Below are positions 5,888 to 22,243 of a DNA stretch of 32,000 bases, one piece after another (position 1 is the stretch's first letter; every line of letters begins with the position of its first letter). The translations under genes and the position numbers were made by a program. The notes under the pieces are model-generated. The model had not been told where the DNA came from. It made no database searches and was given only the letters and a program-made list of their open reading frames with translations. Source of the stretch: Desulfotalea psychrophila LSv54 (GTDB lineage Bacteria; Desulfobacterota; Desulfobulbia; Desulfobulbales; Desulfocapsaceae); contig NC_006138.1 in assembly GCF_000025945.1 (NCBI RefSeq), positions 1,290,001-1,322,000 of the forward strand. The letters run 5' to 3'.

Positions 5888-6982
5888 ATGATAAGTCGAC
5901 GTTCGACAAGGCAAATACAGGTGGGTAGGGTAGCGGTGGGTGGTGACAGCCCTGTTAGCGTTCAGTCCATGACCAATACCGATACCCGTGATATAGAAAA
6001 GACGGCGGAACAGCTGCAACGTCTGCAGCAGGCGGGCTGTGATATTGCCCGGGTGGCTGTTCTCGATCAGGATGCGGCCCGGGCCATATCGGCCCTTGTC
6101 GATATGAGCTCCATGCCCATTATTGCCGACATTCACTTTGACTATCGTCTGGCCATTGCCGCCATGGAAAATGGTGCCGCTGCTATTCGTATAAATCCGG
6201 GAAATCTCGGTGGTGAAGAGAAAACCGCCAAGGTTGTGGCCGCTGCCAAGATGCATGGACTGCCTATTCGGGTGGGGGTTAACAGTGGTTCCATCGAAAA
6301 AGATCTTCTGAAAAAGTATGGTTATCCGACTGCTGATAATACCCAGGCCCTGATTGAAAGTGCTCTGCGTAATGTCCGTCTCTTGGAGAAACATGGTTTT
6401 GAACAGATAAAGATATCCATTAAATCATCGGATGTGCTGACCACCGTAAATGGCTATCAGCAGCTGTCCAAGGTCACCGATTATCCCCTGCATTTAGGTG
6501 TCACCGAGGCAGGTGGGCTTATTGCCGGAACCGTTAAGTCAAGCGTTGCCCTCGGTATTCTCCTGAACCAGGGTATTGGTGATACCCTGCGTATTTCCCT
6601 GACCCGTGATCCGGTGGAAGAGGTACGGGTGGCCTTTGAGCTTCTTCGTTGCCTCGGTATCCGTCAGCGAGGACCGGAGCTTATCTCCTGTCCCACCTGT
6701 GGCCGGACCCGAATTGATCTCTTCTCTCTGGCCGAAAAGGTCGAGCAGGTGGTGCAAGCCATGGAGGCCCCCATCAAGGTGGCAGTTATGGGCTGCGTGG
6801 TCAATGGCCCGGGCGAAGCTAAAGAGGCTGATATTGGTATTGCCGGTGGAGAAGGTTTGGGGATTATCTTTAAAAAGGGTGTCCTTTACAAAAAGGTCGC
6901 CGAGGAGCAACTCCTTGAGGTCTTTTTGGCAGAGTTGCGTGAGCTGGAAGAGGAATATCAGAAAAAGCATAATAATGTCTAG
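5888..6982 (+). CDS. ispG: 4-hydroxy-3-methylbut-2-enyl diphosphate synthase
   Basis: IspG/GcpE-like throughout. Fe-S cysteine motifs SCPTCGRT and GCVVNGPGE. Confidence 0.95.
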   Translation: MISRRSTRQIQVGRVAVGGDSPVSVQSMTNTDTRDIEKTAEQLQRLQQAGCDIARVAVLDQDAARAISALVDMSSMPIIADIHFDYRLAIAAMENGAAAIRINPGNLGGEEKTAKVVAAAKMHGLPIRVGVNSGSIEKDLLKKYGYPTADNTQALIESALRNVRLLEKHGFEQIKISIKSSDVLTTVNGYQQLSKVTDYPLHLGVTEAGGLIAGTVKSSVALGILLNQGIGDTLRISLTRDPVEEVRVAFELLRCLGIRQRGPELISCPTCGRTRIDLFSLAEKVEQVVQAMEAPIKVAVMGCVVNGPGEAKEADIGIAGGEGLGIIFKKGVLYKKVAEEQLLEVFLAELRELEEEYQKKHNNV

Positions 6983-15272: not shown

Positions 15273-15349
15273 GGTCCCGTAGCTCAGCTGGATAGAGCAT
15301 CTGCCTCCTAAGCAGAGGGTCAGGCGTTCGAATCGCCTCGGGATCACCA
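15273..15349 (+). tRNA. tRNA-Arg (anticodon CCU), 77 nt with encoded CCA
   Basis: Folded by hand. Acceptor GGUCCCG/CGGGAUC (one G-U pair), D stem GCUC/GAGC, anticodon stem UCUGC/GCAGA with loop CUCCUAA, 5-nt variable loop, T arm AGGCG-UUCGAAU-CGCCU, discriminator A, then CCA. Confidence 0.92.
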
Positions 15350-15397
15350 GTTATATAAGGCACTTACGGTTTACGCTGTAAGTGCCTTTTTCGTTTT
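15318..15397 (+). repeat. proximal copy of the island-bounding direct repeat (tRNA 3' 32 nt plus terminator hairpin), attL-like
   Basis: Aligns with 22286-22365. A 23-nt identical core ttcgaatcgcctcgggatcacca lies at 15327-15349. Confidence 0.85.
15357..15397 (+). terminator. intrinsic terminator after the tRNA
   Basis: 11-bp stem aaggcacttac/gtaagtgcctt (15357-15367 and 15378-15388) followed by tttttcgtttt. Confidence 0.7.
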
Positions 15398-15559
15398 AAG
15401 TGCATAATAAGTGCAGAAAGTGCTGGGGCTAGTTACAGCGCTGAACCTCTTTCCTCATCCGTATTATCGTTGTACTATCTCGAATTAATTATAAATTATA
15501 TCAAGAAAGCTCTCTCCTCTTGCCCCGCTCGCTGTTATACCGGAAAATAGTATGATTTT

Positions 15560-16010
15560 AACATCATCTGCCGGGACTTGCATTGAGGCTATTTGCATAT
15601 CGCACGCATCTCCATTAATCCACCAACATTTTTTTCAGCACTAAGTAAACAAAATGAGAAACAGCAGTATAAATATTTTCATCTTTAGTGGCACTCCGAC
15701 CTGCAACAGCCAACACGTTCGGCGGAACGTTCATATTTGAAGCCAGCAGGCACCCACAGCTTCTTAGAGTAACCGATGACCGCCATCTCTCATGTTTCGT
15801 AATACCCGCTGAGAGGCCCTGTGAGGGGCCTACGTCTCCTGCAAGTTTCAGGCGCTATCTATGCTCTATACCGGTAATATCGGCCCCTGCTACACCCTGA
15901 TACTCTTTTCTTTACCACGTAGACCTTCTGTCACAACCTGCCCTATTCCTACCGTGCAAGGCAACCTGCACCGTCTTCCTTTACTAGAGTAGAGGTGTGC
16001 TTCTGAGTAT
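15560..16010 (-). pseudogene. possible decayed tyrosine-integrase remnant next to the tRNA
   Basis: There is no long ORF on either strand. Minus-strand reading gives short integrase-like strings in different frames: GLRGKEKSIRV (~15893-15930), TFRRTCWLLQVGVPLK (15683-15730, preceded by a stop where the HxxR histidine would be) and ENIYTAVSH. This is weak evidence by eye. Confidence 0.25.
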
Positions 16011-16218
16011 TCCCTGTGATAGGATAAGATGCTGGTCGGCAATCTCTGGCGAACAAAGGTTTTTGGCTATCTGTGGGTGGTCAAGTGCTTGCTTGAGCTA
16101 AAACGCATTGATTTGATGGTTCTTTTTTGGTATCACCCGTAATGGATGCTGATCTTTATTTGTCGGCGGTTGAGTCAGGCAAGGTTGAAAAGATCTGGAT
16201 CGTACGGGAGATATCAGC

Positions 16219-16267
16219 TTATCACTCGTTATTAATGATATCCAGTTTCTGGATAATAATTTGTTAT
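16219..16267 (+). repeat. island intergenic repeat, copy A (upstream of the 470-aa gene)
   Basis: ttatcactcgttattaatgatatccagtttctggataataatttgttat is about 80 percent identical to copy B. Contains the hairpin tatccag-ttt-ctggata (16239-16255). Weaker similarity extends upstream (tgtcgg, tacggg). Confidence 0.7.
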
Positions 16268-16301
16268 TCTTTGGATTACGAACAGCAAATATGGATGAAA
16301 A

Positions 16302-17714
16302 ATGTCATTTAATTTAGAAGCATTAGAATTAGCAGAGACCTACGACTTTGGGGTCGTTGTAAATGATGGTGCAAATAATTTTGCCGCGAAATTAAACCTT
16401 TCTCCAGAAAAAATCACCATCACTATAATGGGGGAAGGAGGTGACGAAAGAAACTGTTCATTAGGTTATTGTGACGTAGATAGTTTGATTTGTAGAGATT
16501 TGAATAACACTTTCTTTTTACATGAGCTTACCTTTGTTAAAGGTAGTAGTAGACTGATATCACATCATCCCAAACATATAGGGTTTTTCGAAAGCACTTT
16601 TGAAGTCGGTTATGTGATTTTTTCACCGTCCCATCTAGATGAAAATAACTTGGTTGAATCGATAAGTATTCATTCAAACAAGATAAGTGAATGGGTAGGA
16701 ACTACGAATACACAAGAAGAAATAATTAGGGCTTATAATGACAAAGAGCCAATTTTGGAATGTCCAGAAAAACTAAATGAGTTTTTAACCCCACTCGACG
16801 GCGTAGGAATATTGGGTGTTGGTTATAACTTGTCAATGCACAGCTCCTCGCCAAGATTCAGTGCAGGAATTAGTTTTCCACCTTCATTAACCATAGTATT
16901 TCTAAATGGTCAAATTTCGAAAATAGTGATGGATAGCTTCCGTAAGTTATATGCTTTGCTGGCATTTTTTATGGGAGATGACTTTTTGGTCGAACAGGTA
17001 GATATTAGCTTCGGTTCAAGTTTCCGTAGCCGCAAGGGAACACTTTATTATCCTTCAAAAGGCCTGTGTCCTAGATACGAACAAGGCTACTCTTTGTTTC
17101 CGTTAGGGTTAAATGTTCGTTTTGATTCTTTAGGACTTCCTGCGCTTCCAGTGACCTCATTTAATAACTATTATTCTTTGCCAGAAGTTTATTCAGGCTA
17201 TTTTTCAAAGTATTTAAAGTATAAAAGAATGGAAAATCCAGAGGAAAGATTTTTAGGTTTCTTTCGGATTTTAGAGTCACTATGTTTCAACAAGAAGAGC
17301 TATTTAGACGAAGAATTACTGGGTCAAATGTGTGATAGAGTGAAGCCGTATTTAATAAAAAAATTCGGTGATAAAGAAAATGCAACCAGCTTTCTAAGAG
17401 GCATTCCTCGCTACAATAATTCTAAATACAACACAGAAAAATGTATCCAAGATTTTTATTCAAGAATACCAAAATTAGTTTCTGGTAAATGGAAAGTAGA
17501 AAAACGTGATATTGGCAGTATATGTAAACTCAGAAACGATATAACTCATGCAAATGACTATTATATCAACAATAACGAAATAGAAGAGAAAGTAAAATTT
17601 ATGGAGGTTTTATTGGTATATTCATTGTTCGAAAAGTTAGGAGTTGAGCTAACGACAACTGCAGAAATTGCCTATAGAATGCAAGGTTACCATTTGGTCA
17701 CTAAAAAACCATAA
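16302..17714 (+). CDS. HEPN-motif protein with an ApeA-like architecture (putative abortive-infection RNase)
   Basis: 470 aa and A+T-rich. C-terminal helical region with ERFLGFFRILESLC and the RNxxxH motif LRNDITH (17532-17549; R411, H416). The N-terminal beta-rich region (FAAKLNLSPEKITITIMGEGG) recalls the ApeA N-terminal domain. Not HMM-verified. Confidence 0.55.
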   Translation: MSFNLEALELAETYDFGVVVNDGANNFAAKLNLSPEKITITIMGEGGDERNCSLGYCDVDSLICRDLNNTFFLHELTFVKGSSRLISHHPKHIGFFESTFEVGYVIFSPSHLDENNLVESISIHSNKISEWVGTTNTQEEIIRAYNDKEPILECPEKLNEFLTPLDGVGILGVGYNLSMHSSSPRFSAGISFPPSLTIVFLNGQISKIVMDSFRKLYALLAFFMGDDFLVEQVDISFGSSFRSRKGTLYYPSKGLCPRYEQGYSLFPLGLNVRFDSLGLPALPVTSFNNYYSLPEVYSGYFSKYLKYKRMENPEERFLGFFRILESLCFNKKSYLDEELLGQMCDRVKPYLIKKFGDKENATSFLRGIPRYNNSKYNTEKCIQDFYSRIPKLVSGKWKVEKRDIGSICKLRNDITHANDYYINNNEIEEKVKFMEVLLVYSLFEKLGVELTTTAEIAYRMQGYHLVTKKP

Positions 17715-17798
17715 ATAACAACTTGTTAAGGCGCGCACAAAACAGCTGGTTCGCGCTCGTTCCTCGCTCAAATGTCGGGCAAAACTACGGGGCATAGG

Positions 17799-17849
17799 TT
17801 ATCACTCGTTGTTGAATGATATCAGGAAACCGGATAATAACTTGTTAGA
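17799..17849 (+). repeat. island intergenic repeat, copy B (upstream of the 201-aa gene)
   Basis: ttatcactcgttgttgaatgatatcaggaaaccggataataacttgttag. The hairpin at 17820-17836 occupies the same position as in copy A, with one compensatory pair change (A-T to G-C) and the loop changed from ttt to aaa. Confidence 0.7.
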
Positions 17850-17858
17850 TGTAAAGTA

Positions 17859-18464
17859 ATGAATGATATCTACCCAGATTTAGAATGGTATACATCGCTA
17901 AGCGCTAGCAAAAACGCAGCGCCTAGATGTCCATATGCAAATGTGCATCGGTGTAACCGCTATTACTCCAGTCTATATTTGTTAGGGGAGCGTAATATCG
18001 CAAGCAAAATGAATGAAAAAAAAATAATTGAACTAGATAACTATTGGCAAGAAACTGATTTAATACCTGTTGTCCAAGAGCATGATCCGGCTATCAGTTC
18101 TAGTAATGGTAAGATCTTTAGTGTTAGCAATTTCTGCCCTGAAGTTAGTTTTAATTTTTTTAGTTTATTTACTGAATATATGTCGAAGTATGTAGATGAA
18201 ATTGATAGAGACTATGTTCATCAACGATTGAGTTCTGAAGCAAGGAGTAAAGATTGGCGATGGGAATGGATGTCCATAAAAGAAATGCATTATCTAGATT
18301 GCCCAGCCTACTCTCAATTAATGGGTTCCGCATATAGCGCAAATAAAAAAGAAAACGAAACGCAAAAAGACGAAATACTAGAAATAAAGCCAAGTTTTAT
18401 GGGTGTTAGCATTAACCTAAAATCCTTGTATAAATGGGTTGTTAAAAAAGCGCATAATAAATAG
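17859..18464 (+). CDS. hypothetical protein, 201 aa, no recognisable domain
   Basis: Uninterrupted ORF with the same A+T-rich composition and strand as the upstream HEPN gene. Scattered Cys/His (CPYANVHRC, FCPEV, LDCPAY). Basic C-terminus. Confidence 0.6.
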   Translation: MNDIYPDLEWYTSLSASKNAAPRCPYANVHRCNRYYSSLYLLGERNIASKMNEKKIIELDNYWQETDLIPVVQEHDPAISSSNGKIFSVSNFCPEVSFNFFSLFTEYMSKYVDEIDRDYVHQRLSSEARSKDWRWEWMSIKEMHYLDCPAYSQLMGSAYSANKKENETQKDEILEIKPSFMGVSINLKSLYKWVVKKAHNK

Positions 18465-18720
18465 ATTCAGCGTATGGCCATCGCGCGCCGGGACTGTTAA
18501 ACAATTTTTGATCAATAATTTTGTCCACCCCAACCCCCTGCTTCCGTTGCCAATCCTCAACAAGCAGATACTGCTCCCACTTTCCCGCATCTTCAGAGAG
18601 GGCTTGCCGGACGGTCTCGGTATTTCTACCAGCGTGGACGGTAATCTCATCCATGCCACCACCTGCACCTCTCTTTTTCACTTCTATCCCAATATATGCT
18701 ACATAACCTTCACCAACCAA
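18442..18720 (-). CDS. doubtful ORF or gene fragment in a short higher-GC patch
   Basis: 92 codons starting at a TTG directly after an in-frame TGA. Contains IGIEVKK (an ExK-like string). Overlaps the 3' end of the 201-aa gene by 23 nt. Confidence 0.2.
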   Translation of the reverse strand: MVGEGYVAYIGIEVKKRGAGGGMDEITVHAGRNTETVRQALSEDAGKWEQYLLVEDWQRKQGVGVDKIIDQKLFNSPGARWPYAESIYYALF

Positions 18721-19015: not shown

Positions 19016-19597
19016 TTATGCATCTGAACCGGATTTATCTGAGATACTATTGGGTTTAATCGAAGAGGGAAACCAATCAAATAAATTTGAAAAAAGACTC
19101 TGATACCAGTTTATCTTGTAAGAATATTTTTCATCATACCCTAGTGCTTTTGCTAATTCATTGTGGCACATTAAGTTTAACACTTGGAGCACAGGTGGCT
19201 CTTCTGCCTCTATTTCAAGACGTTCACGCATCACGCCCAACAACTGATCAGAATGTAATTTTGGATCTATCAATTTTTTTTCTAACGATATAAAATCCCT
19301 TGCGAAATCATGATGACTCCTTGCTTTCCCCTTAGTCTCAAAAACAAGATCTAGAACAGAAAAAATAGCTGTAAGGCTAGCTAATATCAATGGAATCCAC
19401 GCAGTATTCTCTGAGGAAATAAGGGCTATAATCGTACTAGATCCAAATATAGCAGTAAAGGCATCTGACAATTTACTGACTCGATCGAAAAAACCTCGCC
19501 GTCTATTGTGATACCTCACTGATCGTCGGACACTGAAAAGTAGATTGTGTTGCTCCTCTGCAATCGTATCGTTTTCTCCCGTTACATCTTCTTGCAT
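19016..19597 (-). CDS. SLATT-like two-transmembrane protein (putative membrane-disrupting effector)
   Basis: 193 aa. Basic N-terminal helix (SVRRSVRYHNRRRGFFDRVSKL), then two adjacent TM helices (AFTAIFGSSTIIALI and AWIPLILASLTAIFSVLDLVF) and a helical C-terminus. This layout and the RYHxRRRxFF string match my memory of SLATT-family proteins. Not HMM-verified. Confidence 0.5.
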   Translation of the reverse strand: MQEDVTGENDTIAEEQHNLLFSVRRSVRYHNRRRGFFDRVSKLSDAFTAIFGSSTIIALISSENTAWIPLILASLTAIFSVLDLVFETKGKARSHHDFARDFISLEKKLIDPKLHSDQLLGVMRERLEIEAEEPPVLQVLNLMCHNELAKALGYDEKYSYKINWYQSLFSNLFDWFPSSIKPNSISDKSGSDA

Positions 19598-19602
19598 TTT
19601 AA

Positions 19603-19773
19603 TTACTTCTTTCCAGGAGGTTTTCTCGGTGGTGGTGGAGCTGTATCAACAATTCTGTCTTTTCTGCTATAGTCAATTGACTGTGGGGTGCTGTGATCAG
19701 TAAACGGCATACTTTTACCACTTCCAGCTCCACCCTTATCTTGCTTTTTACCTGTTTTCCCTTGTTCTGCCAT
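19603..19773 (-). CDS. 56-aa Lys/Gly/Pro-rich micro-protein, not in the supplied ORF track
   Basis: Hand translation: MAEQGKTGKKQDKGGAGSGKSMPFTDHSTPQSIDYSRKDRIVDTAPPPPRKPPGKK. GAGGTG (19780-19785 on the - strand) lies 6 nt upstream of the ATG. Its stop is 5 nt before the SLATT-like ATG, and the purine-rich end of the ORF could serve as that gene's RBS. Confidence 0.5.
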   Translation of the reverse strand: MAEQGKTGKKQDKGGAGSGKSMPFTDHSTPQSIDYSRKDRIVDTAPPPPRKPPGKK

Positions 19774-19878
19774 TAAAGTCACCTCACGCTTAATTTCTTT
19801 TCATTTTTTTATGATATTTCTAAAAGCTGCTGATTTCACCTAACAGCATAATAACTTACCACAAAGCTGGATTAGTAC

Positions 19879-20411: not shown

Positions 20412-20816
20412 CTACTCTTTATAACCAAAGACAGTGATGAAAGAGGTGGTCTCTGGTGGTCTTGCCAAATACTCATCAACGAGAATGTGGCTCACATCGG
20501 GGGATGTCATTTTTGCTAACTTCTCCATAAGAATATCGTCAAAACGCTCCTTAGCAATATAGTTGTTTTCTTTGAGGTAGGACTCAAATTCAGTTGCAAT
20601 ATCGAGCATATTTTTAATAACAGGACTTTCCTTATACTCTTCTCGAATATATGAGAAATCAAAGCCGAAATAGGTGCAGGCCGCAAAGATCAGGTGTGGA
20701 CAGTGCCAGTACTCTCCTCTGGCAAACCACTCTTTATTGCATATAGGGCAGCGTATTTCCTCCCATCCTTCATCCCTGTTAACTCTCTTGTGCGCGTCAG
20801 ATTGTACTATTTTCAT
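20412..20816 (-). CDS. hypothetical Cys/His-containing protein, 134 aa
   Basis: ORF with a CPICNKEW...HCPH pattern (possible zinc-binding knuckle). Divergent from the Fic gene across a 395-bp spacer. Confidence 0.5.
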   Translation of the reverse strand: MKIVQSDAHKRVNRDEGWEEIRCPICNKEWFARGEYWHCPHLIFAACTYFGFDFSYIREEYKESPVIKNMLDIATEFESYLKENNYIAKERFDDILMEKLAKMTSPDVSHILVDEYLARPPETTSFITVFGYKE

Positions 20817-21211
20817 GGACTATCCTTATAAATGATCTTAGGTTTTCTGGTTATGCATAAACAATCTTATTCCATGCTACTAAACATTCTATTTTCAATT
20901 TGTCATGGTTCTATTGAGGATGAAATAAAAAAAGCTCTTGCCGGGTCATATTGTGTAGAAAGAATATTTTTCGTAGTTTTTCATTGATCCTGAAGCATCG
21001 GTTTCAGGGGGCACGTTTGGGGCACGAGGGTGCAGAGGGTGTGGCGAGTGATACAAGGTACAGGAGAGTTTATATGCTTATGCAAAGGTATAGGGCAGAT
21101 GAGTGGCTGCTGTAAGCGGAGCCATCTGCTACTGTTTTACCAGTAAATAGAGTATGCTTAGGCTCAAAGATAAAAACTTGGCATCTAACAGCTCATACAA
21201 ATAAAATAGCA

Positions 21212-22243
21212 ATGAATCCTCCCTTTACCATCACCAGCCAGATACTCTCTCTCGTGGCAGAGATCAGTGAGAAAGTTGGCAATATCAAGGCCTTTCAGCA
21301 ATCTGGAGGAACGGACCATAAGCGGGATGATCTCCGTCTGCGCAGGATTAATCAAATCCGTACCATCCAAGGCTCTCTTGCCATTGAGGGTAATACCCTC
21401 AGTGAAGAGCAGATCACCGCCATCTTAGGGGGAAAGACCGTTATCGCGCCCCTAAAGGAGGTGCAGGAGGCTCGCAACGCCTTAAAGGTCTATGGTCAGA
21501 TGGAGAGATGGCGTTTCGCGGCAAGAGACGACCTCCTCCGGGCCCATAAAGAGCTGATGCTCGGTCTTCTTGACAGTGCCGGACAGTACCGTAGCTCTGG
21601 GGTTGGCATAATGAAGAACGAAGAGGTTATCCACCTGACACCACCTGCGGATATGGTGCCAACTCTGATGGCCAATCTCTTCTCATGGCTTAGAGACAGC
21701 GAGGCGCATCCCCTGATTAAATCCTGCGTCTTTCACTATGAATTTGAGTTCATCCACCCCTTTGCCGATGGTAATGGCCGAATGGGTCGCCTCTGGCAAA
21801 GCCTCATTCTCTCTGATTGGCATGAGATCTTTGCCTATCTGCCCGTAGAGAGTCTCGTCTATCAATATCAGAGTGAATATTATCGGGCCTTGAATGAAAG
21901 TACGAACCAGGCTGATTCTGCTCCCTTTATCTCATTGATGCTGGGTTTGGTTCTCAACTCTTTACAGGCATTTATTGATGATACCCCCCAAGTCACCCCC
22001 CAAGTCACCCCCCAAGTCGGAAAACTTTTAATGGTAATCAGGGGCGAAATGTTGGGAAAGGAACTGCTCGCTCTGCTTGGTCTAAGGGATAGGAGATCGT
22101 TTGTCAGGCTTTATCAGGAGCCGGCCCTTGCTACCGGTCTTGTTGAGATGACTCTGCCGGAAAAACCCACCAGCCGTCTGCAGCGATATCGACTGACTCT
22201 CCTGGGGCATGAAGTGCTAAGAACAATTTCCTGTCAGGGCTAG
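21212..22243 (+). CDS. Fic-family protein (AMPylase-type), with an N-terminal inhibitory motif and a C-terminal winged-helix-like tail
   Basis: Canonical Fic motif HPFADGNGRMGR (21755-21790). (S/T)xxxE(G/N) inhibitory motif SLAIEG (21374-21391). C-terminal LPEKPTSRLQRYRLT string typical of Fic proteins with a wHTH tail. Confidence 0.9.
   Translation: MNPPFTITSQILSLVAEISEKVGNIKAFQQSGGTDHKRDDLRLRRINQIRTIQGSLAIEGNTLSEEQITAILGGKTVIAPLKEVQEARNALKVYGQMERWRFAARDDLLRAHKELMLGLLDSAGQYRSSGVGIMKNEEVIHLTPPADMVPTLMANLFSWLRDSEAHPLIKSCVFHYEFEFIHPFADGNGRMGRLWQSLILSDWHEIFAYLPVESLVYQYQSEYYRALNESTNQADSAPFISLMLGLVLNSLQAFIDDTPQVTPQVTPQVGKLLMVIRGEMLGKELLALLGLRDRRSFVRLYQEPALATGLVEMTLPEKPTSRLQRYRLTLLGHEVLRTISCQG
21983..22018 (+). 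repeat. three tandem copies of a 12-nt unit (accccccaagtc) inside the Fic gene, encoding TPQV x3
   Basis: Read directly from the sequence. The decayed copy at ~20050-20068 has only about one unit. Confidence 0.9.

Follow-up and report, generated by a model that had tools for sequence, protein, structure and literature searches.

Does the gene for an ApeA-type HEPN protein in Desulfotalea psychrophila LSv54 form a defence system together with the small gene that follows it, or does each of the two genes stand on its own? The window, by which we mean the whole 32,000-nucleotide (nt) stretch of DNA that was analysed (contig NC_006138.1, positions 1,290,001 to 1,322,000), carries the two open reading frames (ORFs) on the same strand with a gap of 144 nt between them. 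We refer to them as ORF A and ORF B:

16302..17714, + strand: ORF A, ApeA-type HEPN protein, 470 amino acids (aa)
17859..18464, + strand: ORF B, 201-aa protein

A first-pass annotation of this DNA had described the two as neighbouring A+T-rich genes and had proposed that they could, if the pair is conserved, constitute a partnered, two-gene variant of a HEPN abortive-infection system. The coordinates and the composition agree with this description (G+C content, GC, 0.35 for each ORF), and the ApeA assignment and the placement of the locus in a defence-type island were borne out as well. The two-gene module, however, was not, because adjacency of the two genes is not conserved. We consider it probable that ORF A and ORF B are two independent single-gene cassettes, located in a defence-type island adjacent to a tRNA-Arg gene and provided with a common, duplicated promoter element.

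The pair is not conserved in other genomes

We searched the six-frame ORFs of 90 loci with profile hidden Markov models of the two families, trained on 120 homologues of ApeA and 102 of ORF B, respectively. Of these loci, 47 came from GTDB (one genome per species), 9 plus 17 were viral contigs and 3 were metagenome contigs, the others being individual look-ups. Outside the window, an ORF B homologue was found in 0/28 ApeA loci (ApeA identity 72–30%) and, conversely, ApeA was found in 0/62 loci of the ORF B family; the window is the only one of the 90 loci in which both families occur together. A partnered two-gene system is thus not supported as a conserved system, whichever of the two genes is taken as the starting point.

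The closest relatives were also checked individually. All of the closest ApeA homologues (72, 69, 68, 67, 61 and 58% identity) lack an ORF B homologue, and the genes found downstream of them are of various kinds:

72% ApeA relative: downstream, an unknown 479-aa ORF
69% ApeA relative: downstream, a phage integrase
67% ApeA relative: downstream, a RelB/ParE pair
61% ApeA relative: downstream, an RHH protein and a transposase
58% ApeA relative: downstream, a decarboxylase

The closest relative of ORF B (61% identity) has no ApeA fragment nearby, and the 352 nt upstream of it contain no copy of the repeat that is described below. Clustering of flanking ORFs gave no recurrent neighbour for the ORF B family, and in 24 non-redundant ApeA loci we found no recurrent dedicated ApeA neighbour, the only genes in common being prophage core genes shared by five contigs. 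That the characterised ApeA proteins work on their own also speaks against a partnered variant.

As a separate observation, in five high-GC IMG/VR prophage contigs (L071, L074, L075, L078 and L086) one and the same conserved phage gene, of ~340–370 aa, lies about 80 nt upstream of an ApeA homologue, which suggests a prophage cargo hotspot for ApeA.

ORF A encodes an ordinary ApeA_NTD1 plus HEPN_Apea protein

The first-pass annotation had recognised in the 470-aa protein a beta-rich N-terminal half resembling ApeA and a helical C-terminal domain with the HEPN RNxxxH signature. Both halves match their Pfam families above the gathering cut-offs:

16362..17135, + strand: ApeA_NTD1 (PF18862), aa 21–278 (E 2e-29, 103.4 bits versus a cut-off of 25.5)
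17256..17651, + strand: HEPN_Apea (PF18739), aa 319–450, all-helical (E 5e-16, 59.8 bits versus a cut-off of 24.4)
17532..17549, + strand: HEPN catalytic motif R411-N-D-I-T-H416, within LRNDITH

The AlphaFold2 (AF2) model of the protein is of high confidence (predicted local distance difference test, pLDDT, 92.6; predicted template modelling score, pTM, 0.88) and shows strands between aa 14 and 249 followed by an all-helical C-terminal domain, while none of 102 homologues, down to 34% identity, departs from R411, N412 or H416. The nearest relative is 72% identical, and the NCBI entry is already named ‘ApeA N-terminal domain 1-containing protein [Desulfotalea psychrophila]’. Judged by its sequence, the 470-aa protein is an ordinary, already-annotated member of the Pfam ApeA_NTD1 plus HEPN_Apea family. 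No family of PADLOC-DB, which includes an ApeA model, was matched at E ≤ 1, and no solved relative was found by sequence, by profile against the Protein Data Bank (PDB) or by a Foldseek search of the PDB.

The ApeA/BMEI1217 HEPN family with its ApeA-NTD1, a mostly-beta N-terminal domain of ~300 aa, was defined computationally in 2013 (Anantharaman et al. 2013, PMC3710099). The 470-aa protein has the same two-domain architecture and the same Rx4H motif, and does not differ from that definition in any substantive way; like the members of that family, it is a solo gene in a variable, prophage or defence context. Experimental work has dealt with a different set of proteins. The characterised ApeA proteins (Ec1ApeA to Ec4ApeA, Thr1ApeA and Ps2ApeA; Gao et al. 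2020) function as stand-alone proteins (bioRxiv 10.64898/2026.01.26.701840; 10.64898/2026.03.20.713152). They are of ~600 aa, with N-terminal and Mid domains that are predominantly alpha-helical, and form rings of HEPN dimers (bioRxiv 10.64898/2026.01.26.701840). Either they cut tRNA anticodon loops upon binding of 5′-phosphorylated deoxydinucleotides in a conserved pocket, or they cut single-stranded RNA phage genomes (bioRxiv 10.64898/2026.01.26.701840; 10.64898/2026.03.20.713152).

By analogy, the 470-aa protein very probably works in an ApeA-like manner, its N-terminal domain gating the HEPN RNase, and it presumably shares the logic of the characterised proteins, in which an N-terminal sensing region controls an RNase directed at tRNA anticodon loops or phage RNA. 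It belongs, however, to the Pfam-defined family and lies outside the experimentally validated ApeA clade, and our literature search found no experimental study of the ApeA_NTD1 architectural type. Since this type differs N-terminally from all characterised ApeA proteins, caution is needed before statements on the ‘ApeA’ mechanism are applied to it.

One preprint is ambiguous on a distant 467-aa ‘minimal’ ApeA homologue (bioRxiv 10.64898/2026.03.20.713152). Its text implies that this is Bp1ApeA (‘Brucella pseudomallei’), which could not be transformed, and the legend of its Fig. S1 names Bm1ApeA, which protected against DNA phages, as the homologue for which BLAST similarity was absent. By eye, and from the first 500 nt of the construct without an alignment, the N-terminus of Bm1ApeA appears helical, unlike that of the 470-aa protein.

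The ApeA_NTD1 half, presumed to be a sensing or oligomerisation module, gave a further structural observation. The model of aa 14–249 (16341–17048) drew dozens of Foldseek matches, consistent with one another and individually weak, to Hcp proteins of the type VI secretion system and to PVC, AFP, pyocin and phage tail-tube proteins (probability 0.85–1.0, target-normalised template modelling score 0.35–0.51, E 0.03–0.3). If a ring-forming tube-protein fold were indeed joined to a HEPN RNase, this would be of interest, since the characterised ApeA proteins make rings by other means.

ORF B belongs to a separate family with a conserved Cys/His core

The 201-aa protein had been listed as lacking any recognisable domain, with scattered Cys and His residues and a basic tail. 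We came to the same result: ORF B matched nothing in Pfam, NCBIfam, PADLOC or PHROGs, profile searches against PDB sequences gave nothing meaningful, and its AF2 model (pTM 0.73; pLDDT 83–97 in each 10-residue block over aa 1–160) resembled no structure in the PDB or BFVD (best E 0.7–2.8, template modelling score ≤ 0.2). It is nevertheless a real gene, with 102 homologue clusters. When 1.84 billion representatives were searched exhaustively with a profile, 500 clusters at 50% identity were returned (E ≤ 1e-10 for 442), and these proteins range from 146 to 819 aa in length, with a homologous core that nearly always spans residues 1 to ~170. In the window the protein divides as follows:

17859..18338, + strand: conserved core, aa 1 to ~160 (alignments A1, A3 and A5; AF2)
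18384..18461, + strand: C-terminal tail, aa 176–201, a short strand and a basic amphipathic helix

Near-invariant residues of the core are C24, C32, C93 (in the motif S-N-F-C-P-E), H144, C148, W10, W63, E74, E95, D116 and W137. With the window protein as alignment reference, C24, C32, S-N-F-C93-P-E, H144 and C148 are at least 90% conserved both in the 102 homologues (A3) and in 87 long forms (A5). From this pattern, the core probably binds a metal via the four conserved Cys and the one His. The 26-aa tail is conserved among the short forms. It has a maximal hydropathy of 1.03 and matches no domain, and it sits where a transmembrane-like helix follows the core (at about residue 180) in 37 of 150 relatives. 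We infer that the tail may act at the membrane or in oligomerisation.

The C-terminal regions of the longer relatives are of a different nature. TIR_2 was found in 17 of 86 long representatives, a CAP12/Pycsar-type TIR domain in 5, a DpnII/MboI nuclease in 3, PLDc_2 in 2 and SEFIR in 1. PADLOC matches to the long forms involve the C-terminal effector parts only, starting at about residue 161 and aligning to the C-terminal parts of the models (PDC-S35 6e-67, PDC-S66 9e-59, bSEFIR 7e-44, PDC-S05 3e-30, and ThsB too); the ~160-aa core falls outside every PADLOC model. The long ORF B relatives therefore have the same C-terminal effector domains as PDC-S35, PDC-S66, PDC-S05, bSEFIR and the ThsB-like and PycTIR/PycTM-type effectors, and they share with these single-gene candidates the logic of a variable N-terminal module joined to an effector, including TIR-to-transmembrane swaps. 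They differ in that the existing models leave out the core, and the window's 201-aa protein, having no enzymatic effector, matches none of them. A precomputed Abi_C/HEPN label (PF14355) on 287-aa relatives was rejected, as it reached only E 0.02–0.05 on rescanning, below the cut-off.

The genomic surroundings of the family are rich in defence genes. In 19 genomes, ORFs within 4.5 kb of family genes matched HamB of Hachiman (1e-267), SduA of Shedu (1e-158), PD-Lambda-1 (1.6e-108), PDC-S19, PDC-S18, PDC-S08 and type IV DinG, with weaker matches to models of MADS, PARIS, Septu and AbiL. The family is spread over Desulfobacterota, Pseudomonadota, Nitrospirota, Acidobacteriota and Verrucomicrobiota, and members are carried by P1-like IncY phage-plasmids and prophage contigs as well. 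Since a constant N-terminal module is combined with interchangeable immune effectors and located in defence islands and mobile elements, ORF B most likely stands as a single-gene sensor-effector candidate in its own right, and the earlier suspicion that it is defence-related is probably right. Moreover, because its relatives elsewhere have effector domains of their own, the family appears to be self-contained and not an accessory of ApeA.

One plasmid-borne member can be described here in its own right. A 292-aa relative on the E. coli plasmid pAPEC201602 (NZ_CP127299.1; positions 5992–6870 of the fetched locus, L103), an IncY P1-like phage-plasmid, lies just downstream of the ddrA region and beside an IS3 element. 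Five other enterobacterial plasmids have relatives that are either labelled ‘hypothetical protein’ or missing from the annotation.

A duplicated promoter-like element precedes both genes

The first-pass annotation had also reported a related repeat upstream of both genes. This repeat was recovered with nhmmer, together with an additional copy of a 14-mer that it contains:

16216..16268, + strand: repeat copy 1, ~52 nt, with a dyad TATCA-N11-TGATA, a short hairpin, a GATAAT −10-like box and the 14-mer ATAATAATTTGTTA (E 6.7e-11)
17796..17849, + strand: repeat copy 2, 3′ part ATAATAACTTGTTAGAT (E 1e-13)
17715..17728, + strand: third 14-mer, ATAAYAAYTTGTTA, beginning at the first base after the ApeA stop codon

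The copies of the ~52-nt repeat are ~80% identical, with the dyad spaced as TATCA-N11/12-TGATA, and a 25-nt pattern representing the 5′ part of the repeat had zero matches in shuffled sequence. The earlier description needs one correction, which is that the two copies stand in different registers: the distance from the end of the repeat to the ATG is 35 nt for ApeA and 11 nt for ORF B. The 14-mer ATAAYAAYTTGTTA occurs exactly three times in the window (16253–16266, 17715–17728 and 17834–17847) versus 0.06 expected, and as the copies at 16253–16266 and 17715–17728 bracket the ApeA ORF, this arrangement could be the scar of an ApeA insertion event.

The 3′ part of the repeat was then found upstream of ORF B-family genes in other organisms. 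In a Burkholderiales metagenome-assembled genome (MAG; L027) it is identical in 17/17 positions and contains a perfect TATAAT, after which come a Shine-Dalgarno sequence and the family gene's ATG; one mismatch was seen in a Nitrosomonas MAG (L021) and three in Ca. Electrothrix (L030), and it is also present upstream in Desulfobacterium sp. N47 (L051). Allowing up to three mismatches, matches were found in 4/50 upstream regions of the ORF B family versus 0.8% of controls, whereas ApeA upstream regions contained the 3′ part at background level, with no enrichment. We also considered the repeat as a widespread phage or mobile-element signal and rejected this, since the whole viral collection held 12 exact matches, about what chance would give for an AT-rich 18-mer.

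These results suggest that the repeat is a promoter-proximal element proper to the ORF B family and that ApeA here lies behind a duplicated copy of it. Because the 3′ part precedes ORF B-family genes in other phyla and does not precede ApeA genes, it was probably ApeA that acquired the duplicated copy. The repeat may function as a promoter/operator, and local co-regulation of ORF A and ORF B is plausible. The repeat is the only real connection between the two genes.

In Desulfobacterium sp. N47 (282–1068 of that locus), the family gene is truncated to 104 aa and follows a 156-aa secreted-protein ORF, and it is this ORF that is preceded by the promoter-like 18-mer found also in the window.

Proposed mechanism and alternative explanations

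Under the two-cassette reading, the 470-aa protein would dimerise or oligomerise, as do characterised HEPN and ApeA proteins, and a composite Rx4H RNase site would result. Its beta-rich N-terminal domain would restrain the HEPN domain until an infection cue is received, upon which RNA (tRNA or phage RNA) would be cleaved, and no partner would be needed. ORF B would be a pared-down representative of a different family, so far undescribed. In this family the ~160-aa core would be the constant module, possibly a sensor or regulator, and the C-terminal part would supply an exchangeable output, which in relatives is TIR, SEFIR, DpnII/MboI nuclease, PLD or a membrane helix and here only the short basic amphipathic helix. 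ApeA would have landed behind, or acquired, a duplicated copy of the ~52-nt element, after which both genes would be co-regulated locally. A bolder version of this proposal holds that the Cys4/His core is a new, widespread sensor domain of single-protein anti-phage systems with interchangeable outputs, that the short form acts via its amphipathic tail, and that its promoter/operator was duplicated to drive ApeA, bringing two unrelated defence genes under one regulator. We offer this version tentatively, being somewhat inclined to doubt that it is correct in its entirety.

Several observations weigh against two unconnected genes. The ApeA sample is modest, with 28 loci of which ~24 have at least 1 kb of downstream sequence. 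No terminator is predicted in the gap between ORF A and ORF B, both genes carry the regulatory repeat, and their composition is near-identical to one another and to that of a neighbouring SLATT-like gene, with G+C contents at third codon positions (GC3) of 0.30–0.31. Because of this like composition, the common repeat and the missing terminator, a functional coupling of the two genes in this lineage keeps a small share of the probability. As for the individual genes, characterised ApeA proteins have a helical N-terminal region and ~600 aa, whereas the 470-aa protein has the beta-rich NTD1 and no PADLOC match; and the 201-aa protein has no recognisable effector domain and may thus be degenerate or have a regulatory role.

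One form of such a coupling would be a genuine lineage-specific two-gene module, in which the 201-aa protein modulates ApeA as a sensor, antitoxin or regulator under the same duplicated promoter/operator. Beyond the shared strand, the 144-nt gap and the other features just named, one can cite in its favour that one ApeA homologue, presumably toxic, could not be transformed into E. coli, the preprint being ambiguous as to whether this was the distant 467-aa protein. We nonetheless consider such a module quite improbable, given that co-occurrence was nil in both directions, that the closest relatives of each gene lack the other, that the ORF B family has effector fusions of its own, that characterised ApeA proteins are self-sufficient and that the repeat is native to the ORF B family and not a feature of ApeA. 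A comparison with HEPN-MNT (HepT/MntA) and other HEPN toxin-antitoxin pairs leads the same way. There too a HEPN RNase is accompanied by a small same-strand gene, but ORF A and ORF B show no conserved pairing, the small gene lies downstream, and ORF B has no nucleotidyltransferase, helix-turn-helix or other antitoxin domain detectable with Pfam, NCBIfam or PADLOC, while its relatives are fused to effectors elsewhere. A more general variant would treat the short, ‘core-only’ members as sensors or regulators acting in trans on whichever effector gene is adjacent, here the ApeA HEPN RNase and elsewhere a protease, an HNH nuclease and so on. Many short forms do have tight same-strand neighbours with gaps below 100 nt, and a few of these are effector-like (Trypsin_2, HNH, DUF3800). 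However, the 30 tight neighbours are miscellaneous (methyltransferases, GrpE, glyoxalase, nucleotidyltransferase and others besides those just mentioned), with no class recurring and no homologous clusters, and the conserved tail of the short forms, at the position of the transmembrane helix, suggests a built-in output; we regard action in trans as very unlikely.

Finally, the ORF B family may have no immune function, serving instead in mobile-element maintenance, superinfection exclusion or anti-defence, or being a metal- or redox-related hitch-hiker, so that its adjacency to ApeA would be functionally meaningless. This would fit with the lack of a structural or sequence match to anything characterised, with the occurrence on phage-plasmids and prophages and with the missing effector domain of the window's protein. 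It is harder to reconcile with the fact that the family has been fused repeatedly and independently to TIR, SEFIR, restriction-nuclease and PLD domains, which are the same effectors as in PADLOC single-gene candidates, and with neighbourhoods rich in known defence genes, and we judge it unlikely. With two independent cassettes as the favoured reading, the original finding matters little as it was stated, since the ApeA gene is typical and already annotated and the partnered variant is not a conserved system. The ORF B family, absent from Pfam, PADLOC, NCBIfam and PHROGs, is by its fusions and neighbourhoods a reasonable new single-gene anti-phage candidate and a modestly interesting lead, with a conserved Cys4/His core that is open to mutagenesis.

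The low-GC island and its other genes

ORF A and ORF B lie in a trough of low GC that extends from ~16000 to ~21000 (0.35–0.40, versus ~0.50 before). Housekeeping genes (LptF/G, CrcB and a DHH phosphoesterase) are found to the left, and the Fic/DOC gene and a DUF169 gene to the right. Landmarks and further cargo are:

15273..15349, + strand: tRNA-Arg(CCT), left landmark of the low-GC island (ARAGORN; Rfam 65.6 bits)
19016..19597, − strand: SLATT-like protein with two transmembrane helices, 193 aa (NCBIfam SLATT_4 5e-6, below cut-off; phrog_11791 2.3e-49)
21212..22243, + strand: Fic/DOC family gene, right edge of the low-GC stretch (Pfam Fic 1.3e-21, Fic-like_C 7.8e-21)

The GC3 of 0.30–0.31 common to ORF A, ORF B and the SLATT-like gene, versus 0.44–0.61 in flanking housekeeping genes, identifies all three as horizontally acquired island cargo. 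The SLATT-like gene, preceded by a 59-aa ORF (19603..19782, − strand), is a neighbouring piece of this cargo outside the ORF A/ORF B pair, and has no BLAST relative in any other fetched locus. In one locus (L090) a SLATT_1/DUF4231 gene lies directly upstream of the 58%-identical ApeA homologue. It is not a BLAST-level relative of the window's SLATT-like gene and represents a different family, and a linkage of SLATT to ApeA was accordingly rejected. In two Syntrophales contigs (L001 and L002), a Fic gene is located ~3.4 kb from a gene of the 201-aa family.

Several possible traces of the island's origin were looked for. A tRNA-derived att repeat at the right border was not convincing, the best candidate being a 15-nt, 87% match at 21032–21046, and tblastn between the island and the first 52 fetched loci found the ORF B gene alone, with no decayed integrase or other gene in common. 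E. coli genomes contained no nucleotide match to the island. An integron attC between the genes was likewise rejected, as neither strand of 17712–17852 gave a folding signal above that of shuffled sequence (z −0.30 and −0.49), and no repeat follows ORF B. No Rfam family and no tandem-repeat RNA that could act as a regulatory or antitoxin RNA was detected in the island.

The 866 nt directly 3′ of the tRNA gene (15350–16215, GC 0.45) open with a strong terminator-like hairpin (15357–15388) and contain no ORF of 110 aa or more, only two short ones of 70 and 50 aa; neither an integrase remnant nor an Rfam family was detected there. Between the SLATT-like and Fic genes, a 134-aa ORF (20412–20816, − strand) has zinc-ribbon-like CxxC...C/H motifs and weak Pfam hints only, and was assigned to no family. 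A 92-aa ORF (18442–18720, − strand; GC 0.47), which has no Pfam match, overlaps the 3′ end of ORF B in antisense orientation and may be a gene fragment from the earlier history of the island.

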